This document shows, piece after piece, positions 23,390 through 49,730 of a stretch of 64,000 nucleotides of DNA. The translations under genes were made by a program, and so were the position numbers. How positions within the stretch are numbered: position 1 is the stretch's first letter; each line of letters opens with the position of its first letter. A model generated the notes under the pieces. It had not been told where the DNA came from, did not search any database, and saw only the letters and a program-made list of their open reading frames with translations. The DNA is taken from assembly GCA_964016885.1 (NCBI GenBank), contig OZ024748.1:30008001-30072000 (forward strand), written 5' to 3'. Origin of the DNA: Eledone cirrhosa. Its lineage: Eukaryota.

Positions 23390-23460
23390 TATATATATGT
23401 ATATATATATATGTATATATAATATATAAGAACAAAAGATGGTTAAAAGAGTTCCATGTA

Positions 23461-23527
23461 TTTTATTATGCGCATTTCAAAAACAAATATCATCATGCAA
23501 TAATATTTGTGTTTTCATCAAATAAAA
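23461..23527 (-). ncRNA. Hammerhead motif in the PLE1 3' end (C3U change)
   Basis: Same as 26527-26593 except the core reads TTGATGA. Confidence 0.7.
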
Positions 23528-46585: not shown

Positions 46586-49500
46586 AATATATATGAAGTT
46601 AATAATAAATTACATGACCAACTATTAATATATAATATCACCTCTAAATACCAAATAGCTAATATAAATACGTACCATAATATAAATAAGGAAGCTAAAG
46701 AATTAGCTGTTTCTTTAAAAATAGATAATAGGACAGAAAAACTTGCTAAACGTTCTGCGTATATTACCCTTAAAGATCATAAACCCGACTTTATTAATCA
46801 TCCTAGTTGTAGATTAATCAACCCTGCTAAGACTGATATTGGTCTTGCCAGCAAAAAAATTTTAAATAAATTAAATACACACATTAGAAGTAAGTCTAAA
46901 TTACTCCAATGGATAAATAGCTCTTCCGTAGTACATTGGTTTAATAATATTAAAAACAAAATCAGTTCTAGATTCACCCAATTTGACATTGTAGATTTCT
47001 ACCCATCTATTACTCAGACCCTTTTAGTGAAAGCTTTAAATTTCGCTAGAGGGTTCACTAATATCTCCGATATTGAAGAGAATGTCATCTTGCATGCTAG
47101 GAACACTCTACTTTTTAATGATAATGACACTTGGGTAAAAATATCTAACCCAGAGAACCCATTCGATGTCTCAATGGGCTCTTATGACAGTGCCGATGTT
47201 TGTGATCTGGTCGGCCTATTCCTCTTACATACACTTAAAGAAAAATTTCCTAACCATATTTTTGGGCTTTATCGTGACGATGGTCTAATACTTTCCCATA
47301 CCACCATAGGCCATAACTTAGATAGATTAAGGAAAGACTTAATAAAAACCTTCGCTAGTTTTAATCTTAAAATTACTATTGACACTAACCTTTCCAACGT
47401 AGATTTCCTAGATATAAACCTAGATTTGCCTACTGCTTCTTATAAACCATACCATAAACCTAATGAAAACTTAAAATATATAAATAAAGGATCTTGCCAT
47501 CCACCTATAGTTTTTAAAAACCTTATCCCTAATATTAGCCGTAGGATCTCCACCCTCTCTTCCTCAGAAGCTATTTTTAATAAGGCATCCCCCTACTATA
47601 ATTAGCCCTCCAAAATAGCGGTTTTAGCGAACCGATTAAATACATACCTAACTATACTAACTCTATTAAACATAAAAATAGGAAAAGAAAAATAATCTGG
47701 TTCACACCCCCCTACTCTCTAGCAGTTAAAACTAATGTAGGCAAAAAATTCCTTGAGCTCCTAGATAAACATTTCCCTAGAACACATAGATACTATAAGA
47801 TCTTTAACAGAAACTGCGTTAAAATTAGCTATTCCTGCGGTCCCCCTATTAAGTCCTATATCCTCAACAAAATATCACCTAGAGAAAATCAAACTTGCTC
47901 CTGTAGAATCAAAAGTGAATGCCCATTACAAGGTAAATGCAACACCAAAGCCATTGTATATGCGGCTAAAGTGACAACCATCAGCAACAACCATCCAGCC
48001 ACCAGTGAACGATATGTGGGTATGACGCAAGACAAATTCAAAACGCGTTATTACTCACATGTCGCATCCTTTCGACATCCAGAAAAAAGATTTACAACAG
48101 CTCTGGCTAGCAGAATTTGGGATTTGAAAGACCAAGGCATCCAATATAAATTAGATTGGTCAATTTTGAACCAATCTAAAAAATATGCTAGAGGAACAAG
48201 AAAATGCACGCTCTGCATAAATGAAAAATATTGGATATTGCAAAATCTAAAATCACCAAAGACCTGCCTGAACACAAAGACGGAAATTTTCACCAGTTGC
48301 CCACACATGAAATCACACCTGCTTTCCAGCTCATATAAACTCAACACACTTTCAGATACTTATCCTCCATAAACTCTTATTATTCTCTTTTTAATTACCC
48401 TTTCTGACTTCTTTTCATTTTTATCCTTGTCAATAATTTCATTTATTTTTATTTTTATTTTTACTTCACATCCACCAACCCCCCCCCCTTTATTCTCCGA
48501 TTCACTTTCCATTTTTTACTTCCCCTTCTTTTACTTCCCTTTTTCCTCCACTAACTGATTACACTTGTCTTTTGTGTTTTTCAATCCAGATATATTTTTC
48601 ATTTTTATTTTTATTTTTTATTTTTGCGCAGCCAATCTTACAATTTTATATTTGTACTTACTTCTCCACAAGTTTTTTACACCCTGTATCAATATGGCTG
48701 AACGCCTTAATGTGTGTATACTTTTATATATGTACATGAGTGACTACGTATGTGCGCGCGCGTGCGTGAATGTATATATATATATATATATATATATATA
48801 TGTGTGTGTGTGTGTGTATGTATATATTATGCGTATGTGTATGTGTCTTTATATCCGTGTTTTTGACATCTCGGTTTTATGTTTTGTTCCTTTTTTCTTC
48901 TCCCCCCCTCTTTCCTTTTTTTACTTACTCAGTTTTATGCGTGTGCATGCAAACAGGTCAATACGCGTGAGTGTAAGTATGTGTGTGTGTGTGTGTGTAT
49001 GTACGTATCGAACGTATGGATGTGTAAGTGCGCATGTGTATATAAGCATATATATTTTTGCGTTTCTTTTGTGAGACATGCGTGTCTGTGTATGTATGTA
49101 ACCTTTTTTTGTCTTCTTTTCTTTAATTTTTTCTTTCTAATATTTTTTCTTTCTAATTTATTGTTACATTTTTATAAATATATCGAGATTGATACTTTCC
49201 TTTAATTATTACATTCCCTTACCTCTTTTACTTCCGCATCTAAGTGTACGAGTGTGCAGGCGTTTTATGCGCGCGCCTTCATATTCATATATTTATGATG
49301 TAACTATTCTGTATGTAGATTACAGACATACAGATACATTTGCCCTAAATTTTAGATTTACGCACACTTTTTCACTATACTTATACACATGTGCATATAC
49401 ATATATGCACATCTGTGAGCGTATATACATACATATACACACACCTAACTATATTTCTTGATAGATTTTTATATATTTCAATTTCTAATTCATTTGTCTA

Positions 49501-49730
49501 TATCTTTTTTTGATTTTCTTGATGAGTTTTTCTAAGTATTTACCCATGTTTTATATTGCCTCGTCTGACGAACGAATGAAGACGTTTATTTCGTATTCGC
49601 CTCATTCGGGAAACCTCTGGTAATGAGGTAATTATATTGTATTGATTTTTTATACATTAAATTTTGCTCTGATACTTACATAGAGCACTCTTCACTTCTA
49701 TGACCTTTTCTGTTTCCAACGGAAATTTCA
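46586..49730 (+). mobile_element. Penelope-like element 4, 5'-truncated, frameshift near 47600
   Basis: LKDHK..RLINP..FTQFDIVDFYPSI..MGSYDSADVCDLVG..GLYRDDG. The next frame gives IIWFTPPY..CSCRIKSECPLQGKC..IVYAAKV..YVGMT..FKTRYYSH..CTLCINE, stop 48372. ~1.35-kb 3' UTR. Confidence 0.94.
49555..49632 (+). ncRNA. Type I hammerhead ribozyme in the PLE4 3' end
   Basis: attgcctcgt-CTGACGA-a cgaatga..tcattcg g-GAAA-cc tct gg-TA|atgaggtaat. 10-bp stem I, GUA site. Confidence 0.85.

Follow-up and report, generated by a model that had tools for sequence, protein, structure and literature searches.

Four Penelope-like elements in a TA-rich region

The window analyzed is a 64,000 nucleotide (nt) stretch of AT-rich animal DNA from Eledone cirrhosa (assembly GCA_964016885.1, contig OZ024748.1, positions 30,008,001–30,072,000 of the forward strand). 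TA array makes up 40% of the zone between 10.2 and 57 kb. The window carries four Penelope-like elements (PLEs): PLE1 (minus strand, 26320–23421), PLE2 (minus, 30057–27604), PLE3 (minus, open reading frame (ORF) from the ATG at 38159 to 35987) and PLE4 (plus, 46586–49733). A short predicted RNA hairpin, found upstream of the ORF in their relatives, likely marks the two internal positions at which reverse transcription begins and by which the PLE tail is made.

A profile built from PLE3 and 95 relatives was scored against the window ORFs. Significant matches are confined to the ORF pieces of PLE1–4 and a partial duplicate at 38495–38941 (independent E-values 3e-241 to 2e-22; the next best match is at 1.2). 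The four proteins display pairwise identities of 33–45%. The profile, these identities and the motifs described below bear out the preliminary description of this DNA, which had placed four divergent PLE proteins with shared motifs here. Its inventory of four elements was incomplete, however, as at least three further PLE stubs are present (19041–19195, 21348–21400 and 39674–39890).

Protein motifs and clade identity

The motif FDIxx[YF]YxSI is found in three of the four PLEs, PLE2 being truncated before it. MG[AS]xDS, G[IL]YRDD, the CxCx5C linker, CxLCxxE and CxH are each present in all four, as are the GIY-YIG residues Y-x-G, R, E and N. PLE3, the sole element that keeps the N-terminal region, displays RWR and DKT. 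The CxxC between the GIY and YIG strands is absent in all four, i.e. the CCHH finger is lacking. In the accessible text of Craig et al. (2021, PMC8557442), on which all statements about that paper rest, the Hydra clade is defined by RWK, DKT, CxCx5C, absence of CCHH, CxxC/CxH, a hammerhead ribozyme and (TA)n. PLE1–4 share with it RW[KR], DKT, CxCx5C, the missing CCHH, CxxC and CxH, and also a hammerhead in the 3′ untranslated region (UTR), (TA)n flanks and an inverted 5′ copy such as that of Penelope-13_HM. The nuclease is C-terminal in all four, and the N-terminal GIY-YIG of Naiad/Chlamys is not found. PLE1–4 also lack the endonuclease CCHH of Penelope/Poseidon, Neptune and Nematis and the CX2-5CxxC linker of Neptune/Nematis. 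The earlier assignment to the Hydra clade thus agrees with the published definition in all diagnostics that could be tested, and PLE1–4 are almost certainly Hydra-clade elements.

The novelty claimed for these elements was overstated, since Hydra-1_Obim of Octopus bimaculoides, with a (TA)n preference, is already listed (PMC8557442). PLE1–4 extend a clade that has been described before, together with its (TA)n bias and a family from octopus. By-eye comparison with the supplement DNA of PMC8557442 shows that PLE4 and Hydra-1_Obim share the stretches SCHPPIVFKNLI and CSCRIxxECP. What differs is that a single window holds at least four families 33–45% identical to one another, as against one published octopus family. 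The downstream regions of PLE1–4 are also about 1 kb long, and some hammerhead cores vary at position 4. An annotation of O. vulgaris reports 31 recently active Penelope-like families; Hydra is unnamed in the accessible part, and its supplement may hold these families (PMC13282606). A size below 3 kb is a general tendency of the Hydra clade and no rule (PMC8557442). The 5′-truncated PLE1 and PLE4 span 2.9 and 3.1 kb if the entire downstream sequence belongs to each, and part of the downstream regions of PLE2 and PLE4, which contain internal TA runs, may not be theirs.

Relatives of PLE3 number 543 among 8000 scored candidates, the best displaying 37–56% identity, and the named members of their clusters are coral proteins. 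PLE3 is 44% identical to the relative P0003 over 88% of the length. The Porites protein P0122 has 31, 34 and 45% identity to PLE1, PLE2 and PLE4. Both P0003 and P0122 match Hydra-2_Amil, again by eye against the supplement DNA (PMC8557442).

Pfam gives no RT (reverse transcriptase) or GIY-YIG match for any of the nine PLE pieces among 12 window proteins scanned, and a PDB sequence search found nothing. The AlphaFold model of PLE3 has a pLDDT (predicted local distance difference test) of 90. Foldseek with the RT model gives telomerase reverse transcriptase (TERT) structures as its top four matches (E = 3e-9 to 3e-8), and in VIA the best match is yeast telomerase (Z = 17.1), tied with DRT2 (16.7). 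The endonuclease model compares best with I-TevI (Z = 9.5, root mean square deviation 2.3, 89 residues aligned), followed by T4 EndoII (Z = 7.8) and UvrC (Z = 6.3); Foldseek with this model gives no match at E ≤ 0.001. Telomerase RT and I-TevI-type GIY-YIG nucleases are thus the closest solved folds, a likeness of fold only at 9–15% identity.

A quick IQ-TREE tree of 69 Hydra-like proteins (PLE1–4 and 65 of 190 fetched) is unrooted. A branch with a Shimodaira–Hasegawa-like approximate likelihood ratio (SH-aLRT) of 99 separates PLE1–4, P0001 and P0002 from the 63 other proteins. The idea that the clade radiated in the host genome is upheld to the extent that this grouping is consistent with a lineage-specific radiation; the tree has no root, and PLE1 and PLE2 have branch lengths above 1.0, PLE1 being biased in composition.

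A conserved predicted hairpin upstream of the open reading frame

From metagenomes, 77 loci of Hydra relatives were gathered, 46 of them evaluable upstream of the ORF and 50 downstream. The pattern GCTC-N(6–30)-GAGCAC is present upstream of the ORF in 38 of the 46 and on the reverse strand in none; the chance expectation is 0.027 per 290 nt. The hairpin is often doubled, with copies about 64 nt apart, and the last one lies mostly 10–30 nt ahead of the next ATG. The hairpins display a one-sided 2-nt bulge and loops of 8–20 nt. In 75 of 78 distinct hairpins the 3′ bulge is TT, TC or TA. The first pair above the bulge is C-G in 48, T-A in 27 and some other pair in three. With one hairpin from each of 39 families the figures are 23, 15 and 1 (Fisher p = 6e-10), a sampling that removes relatedness only partly. 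Of 56 internally anchored hairpins, 32 have a TATA or ATAT patch at most 12 nt upstream, compared with 4 and 7 in control windows.

Element ends have a regular position with respect to the hairpins. In five informative loci the TA runs at element ends start 6–10 nt before the hairpin, with 4–7 nt of microhomology. Short ends (n = 8) fall at a median of 42.5 nt past the ribozyme GAAA, where the first hairpin (hp1) is at 54.5, i.e. 12 nt earlier. Long ends (n = 8) fall at a median of 53.5 nt past hp1, about 10 nt earlier than the second hairpin (hp2) at 64.

Within the window, the PLE3 tail or 5′ UTR (38160–38289, minus) has twin hairpins, hp1 at 38286–38240 and hp2 at 38197–38180. The TA ends of the PLE3 family at 38289 and 38201 are 2 and 3 nt 5′ of these. 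The PLE1 tail begins with a hairpin (26640–26664, plus) in which an A-T pair replaces G-C, and the PLE1 short end is about 4 nt before it. A covariance model made from 36 of the 78 hairpins, all from outside the window, was run over 60 kb and gives exactly two significant matches, PLE3 hp2 and the PLE4 tail hairpin hp1 (49666–49688, plus; E = 2.5e-6). The minimum free energy (MFE) structure of the hairpin at 35115–35082 is as predicted (z = −2.0), and that of the PLE1 tail hairpin has a slightly different register (z = −0.8). A strict pattern match at 39455 is taken as chance; it is inside a long interspersed element (LINE) and has neither the bulge nor the pair pattern.

The hairpin motif occurs four times in the published Hydra consensi, and about 100 Naiad/Chlamys consensi contain two unpaired matches (supplement of PMC8557442, in which line breaks may hide matches). 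The main text of that paper mentions no hairpin, stem-loop or GAGC, and the supplement text, which includes one figure page without text, does not mention the hairpin. No description of it is found in the accessible parts of PMC4209133 or bioRxiv 10.64898/2026.07.22.740005, or in the remaining literature searched, subscription papers and Repbase notes being beyond reach.

TA tracts at element ends

Each of the eight ends of PLE1–4 has a (TA)5+ run no more than 21 nt away, compared with 15–20% of random non-array positions having one within 25 nt. A 4.9 kb imperfect TA array lies between PLE2 and PLE3 (30058–34952), and other flanking arrays are at 23390–23428, 26723–27182, 27537–27603, 38947–39019, 46545–46595 and 49731–56065. 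The preliminary description was correct in placing TA tracts at the element ends, but these tracts are no proof of targeting. All 16 ends of eight non-PLE copies of LINEs and short interspersed elements (SINEs) in the 10.2–57 kb zone are within 32 nt of a (TA)5+ run, so that TA flanks in the window alone show no PLE-specific targeting. Outside this zone one of five such ends is near a (TA)5+ run; these control ends were chosen by hand. Synthesis of the kilobase-long TA arrays by RT itself was considered and rejected, since other repeats have the same flanks.

Evidence from other genomic copies was obtained for the PLE3 family. In place of a genome-wide flank logo, family copies were sampled through reads and contigs of four sequencing runs from four studies (X1, possibly from the sample behind the window itself, X5, X6 and X19, the last being reduced-representation data), compared with window positions 34955–38490. 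TA runs are found before 38289 in 130 contigs of X1, three of X5 and 2316 reads of X19 (agreement 0.67), and before 38201 in 112 of X1 and one of X5; X6 has no TA-run row at either position. TA-joined ends in other copies are established from reads for this family only. The flanks of PLE1, PLE2 and PLE4 are local and non-discriminating.

PLE3 and its family

The PLE3 ORF (35987–38159, minus) encodes, from its ATG, RWR, DKT, RT, CxCx5C and GIY-YIG. The claim that PLE3 is one frameshift from intact does not hold, as the window copy bears at least three lesions. An extra base at 37935 is lacking from 318 of 369 X19 reads and from X5 and X6 contigs, but from only 40% of X1 depth. About 36 nt are lacking at 36063/4, and most listed read joints carry those bases. 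Codon 36982–36980 encodes N where D is found in 95 of 95 relatives, and other family copies keep the D codon. Since other copies are without the lesions of the window copy, the PLE3 family probably has open ORFs.

The ORF is followed by a TG/TA-rich 3′ UTR (35392–35986, minus) and by what is probably the 3′ stub of a different Hydra family, joined to PLE3 (34953–35385, minus), which has a hammerhead at 35204, the hairpin at 35115–35082 and TA array beyond it. Many other family copies diverge from the window sequence at 35392, and the TA array ending at 34952 therefore probably abuts the stub of another family. Upstream is a partial tandem copy, or pseudo-long terminal repeat (pLTR), at 38289–38943 (minus). 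Its ORF piece (38943–38494) is 98.9% identical to 36858–36409 and joins a family 3′ end with a hammerhead at 38358. Read depth is at its maximum at 38141–38490, for which reason the 38358 hammerhead segment is considered the true 3′ end of the family. The similarity between 35392–35413 and 38478–38498 is weak (15 of 500 shuffles are equally good), so that the PLE3 3′ UTR is linked to this hammerhead chiefly by a by-eye comparison of loose ends.

Depth along the PLE3 ORF climbs from 5′ to 3′, from 26–62k to 405k in X1 and from 14–28 to 47 in X5. Opposite-strand read joints cluster, linking 38248–38312 to 38355–38363. The gradient, as the mark of 5′ truncation, and the clustered joints are a signature of target-primed reverse transcription (TPRT). 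A pLTR and tail organization is seen in an inverted copy with a tail (PLE1), a tandem partial copy (PLE3) and the inverted joints in reads. In addition, 787 reads run from a 37-nt piece of hp1 (38254–38290) into a different repeat, whose end resembles what we take to be a Helitron 3′ hairpin plus CTAG.

PLE1, PLE2, PLE4 and the 3′ stubs

PLE1 consists of a 5′-truncated ORF and about 1 kb of 3′ UTR. Its RT piece is at 26303–25104, a frameshift is near 25110, and the linker and GIY-YIG are at 25113–24433; about 10 codons are missing in frame following RT motif E. An inverted copy of the 3′ end (26325–26641, plus; 97.5% identical to 23413–23733) sits at the 5′ break. The tail (26637–26720, plus, 84 nt) is on this inverted copy only and ends at the TA array.

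PLE2 is 5′-truncated at the 4.9-kb TA array, with a frameshift near 29040 and the ORF end at 28635. Its downstream region of about 1 kb, with an internal TA run, is putatively all PLE2 sequence. PLE4 has a 5′-truncated ORF with one frameshift near 47601 and a stop at 48372, followed by about 1.3 kb with an internal TA run. A degenerate TG/TA microsatellite of several hundred bases is found on the sense strand in PLE2 (28050–28480), PLE3 (35540–35980) and PLE4 (48700–49450).

The stub at 19041–19195 (plus) is a PLE3-family 3′ end with a hammerhead (19127) and an inverted tail piece, and has TA on both sides. The stub at 21348–21400 (minus) belongs to a PLE3-related family, is 81% identical and is TA-flanked. 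The stub at 39674–39890 (plus) is of PLE type, displays a minimal hammerhead at 39802–39846 and has TA on both sides.

Hammerhead ribozymes

PLE4 has a canonical type I hammerhead (49555–49632, plus; core at 49565) with a 10-bp helix I. It forms the three-way junction in its MFE structure (z = −1.5), and Rfam gives no match to it. The PLE1 3′ hammerhead (23462–23529, minus; core at 23521) has one core change, C to U at core position 3; the core in the inverted copy (26533, plus) is canonical. PLE2 displays a partial hammerhead (27756, minus) with the core and helices II and III, without helix I. Position 4 of the core, normally U, is C at 35204, A at 38358, A at 19127 and apparently G near 21400.

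At the gathering threshold Rfam detects no hammerhead in the window. An Rfam scan at a wide E-value cut-off, in which the best 150 of 643 matches were examined, is dominated by matches of TA repeats to miRNA models. The stub at 39674–39890 scores 31.7 bits with Hammerhead_1 against a gathering threshold of 34 (E = 2e-6 for a 211-nt search). By chance 0.17 canonical hammerheads are expected per 36 kb, compared with two seen, and 2.1 are expected with one mismatch. This latter rate covers the candidates at 28516 and 10712, which were not counted. A TA-flanked island at 10592–10712 (minus) has a hammerhead-like fold (G8A) and resembles a PLE 3′ end, at a level that the scan with relaxed core would give by chance. 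In the metagenome relatives a canonical hammerhead is downstream in 33 of the 50 evaluable loci and on the reverse strand in none, and 33 of the 34 hammerheads detected are canonical.

Possible role of the hairpin

The reading we lean toward is that the window holds four decayed, distinct Hydra-clade PLE copies and 3′ stubs that spread by TPRT, with RT starting 5′ of the hairpins at the TATA patch. A transcript would read through pLTR-ORF-pLTR, and the element protein would bind a hairpin. Nicking of (TA)n DNA by the GIY-YIG domain would leave a 3′ end that pairs with the UAUA patch, and synthesis would begin just 5′ of hp1, giving the short end, or just 5′ of hp2, giving the tailed end; 5′ truncation and inverted joints would follow. 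A start at either hairpin unit would therefore produce tail-less and tailed 3′ ends. We infer that the hairpin is an RT docking or start signal, with primer pairing adding to the TA bias; the hairpin and patch may explain TA targeting through such pairing. This start model, a hairpin-guided internal start with TA primer pairing, is perhaps slightly better than evenly balanced. The wider proposal, a clade-wide RNA signal of tandem units of TATA patch and bulged GCUC/GAGC hairpin, with a telomerase-like RNA-templated part in microsatellite targeting, may as well be wrong as right.

The nearest experimental system is the Poseidon element PAc of Anolis carolinensis (Frangieh et al. 2024, PMC11167929, of which part was accessible). 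It too has an RT and GIY-YIG polyprotein, AT-rich cleavage, and two internal RT starts, shown in vitro, that bound the genomic tail, with a stem-loop at the start; the hammerhead is dispensable. PAc belongs to another clade, however, and starts in a stem-loop, rich in AC, that lies inside the ORF, whereas in the window PLEs a TATA patch precedes the GCTC hairpins, which are in the UTR, and the ends lie 5′ of them, the start sites being deduced from these ends.

Several observations weigh against the favoured reading as a whole. In the one PLE assayed in vitro, i.e. PAc, there is no homology between the site where RT starts and the cleaved DNA (PMC11167929). The TATA patch is absent from 24 of the 56 hairpins, and from the 12 nt before PLE3 hp2 and PLE4 hp1. 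Only five informative loci allowed junctions to be placed on a 5′ copy, a sixth being uninformative, and exact-seed mapping gave no seed match in 12 of 17 loci. No hairpin was found in PLE2. The covariance model picks up only two of the five window hairpins, the three long-loop variants being recognized by pattern or eye only, and single-sequence MFE gives the predicted register in only two of the five. Among the evaluable metagenome relatives a (TA)4+ run is downstream in only 18 of 50, many contigs being short. A second repeat shares 38254–38290 and inflates the depth there, the non-PLE repeats are as TA-flanked as the PLEs, and the tree holds none of Penelope/Poseidon, Neptune, Nematis or Naiad.

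TA targeting could instead be the work of the protein alone, through the linker Zn finger and GIY-YIG as proposed in PMC8557442, with the TATA patch and hairpin acting on DNA; we regard this as possible and rather unlikely. Patch and hairpin would then be the place where the endonuclease cuts the pLTR of its own element, or a promoter or translation element, and ends would fall at hairpins because copies insert into one another. The linker has been tied to targeted insertion (PMC8557442); cleavage of an element within its own pLTR and a lack of homology at the RT start are reported, and recognition by the D. virilis Penelope endonuclease needs the tail (PMC11167929). The position of the last hairpin shortly before the next ATG also suits this alternative. 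The covarying pair, one-sided bulge and loop lengths, however, are more readily reconciled with a single strand that folds than with a site in duplex DNA, and ends of dispersed copies adjoin genomic TA arrays and not other pLTRs.

That the Hydra PLEs of this window have no real TA preference, and simply accumulated, like every other repeat, in a TA-satellite field or saw TA arrays grow later, is very improbable. The flanks of the non-PLE repeats and the abundance of TA array in the zone agree with it, but three runs from three studies show TA-joined ends for the PLE3 family, a SINE copy (7040–7395) has TA at neither end, and (TA)n is given for 26 of 27 Hydra families, Hydra-1_Obim included, in File S1 of PMC8557442. 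We give hardly any credence to PLE1–4 being a separate lineage sister to Hydra proper. The supported branch that parts them and two proteins from 63 relatives and their longer than usual downstream regions could be so read; against this, all tested Hydra diagnostics are present, PLE4 resembles Hydra-1_Obim by eye, and the tree is unrooted with PLE1 biased in composition.

The accessible parts of PMC8557442 and PMC11167929 treat as open questions how an internal start site is chosen by PLEs and what makes many of them favour microsatellites. As several more families in a clade known from octopus before, the elements are of modest value. The larger interest is in the hairpin, a short motif conserved in 39 families that has a covarying pair and lies at a fixed distance from genomic ends. 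It offers exact mutations for an existing in vitro assay and gives annotators a marker of Hydra ends.

Other repeats in the window

A LINE at 40764–43151 (plus) has an unbroken RT frame of 796 codons (RVT_1, E = 2.5e-31), is 5′-truncated and has TA arrays on both sides; we take it to be CR1-like. LINE fragments at 22612–23389, 43807–44461, 19979–21087, 45075–46545 and 39020–39620, presumably RTE-like, are all TA-flanked. Four have (ATG)n tails, and two pairs are about 90% alike. A tRNA-derived SINE is present in three copies (27183–27536, 56066–56403 and 7040–7395), with an Rfam tRNA match at 27194. Its 3′ tail is common with the RTE-like LINE, and the copy at 7040–7395 is without TA flanks.

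At 21088–21330 are two tandem 120-bp units parted by TA runs, resembling the end of a Tc1/mariner miniature inverted-repeat transposable element. Short frames at 5897–6139 (minus) and 1004–1375 (plus) resemble what we assume to be pieces of a Helitron PIF1-type helicase and a mariner transposase. A perfect palindrome of about 46 bp (56683–56728) lies between TA arrays, and the end of the window (59135–64000) is a 24-bp minisatellite of 203 copies with 92% matches.

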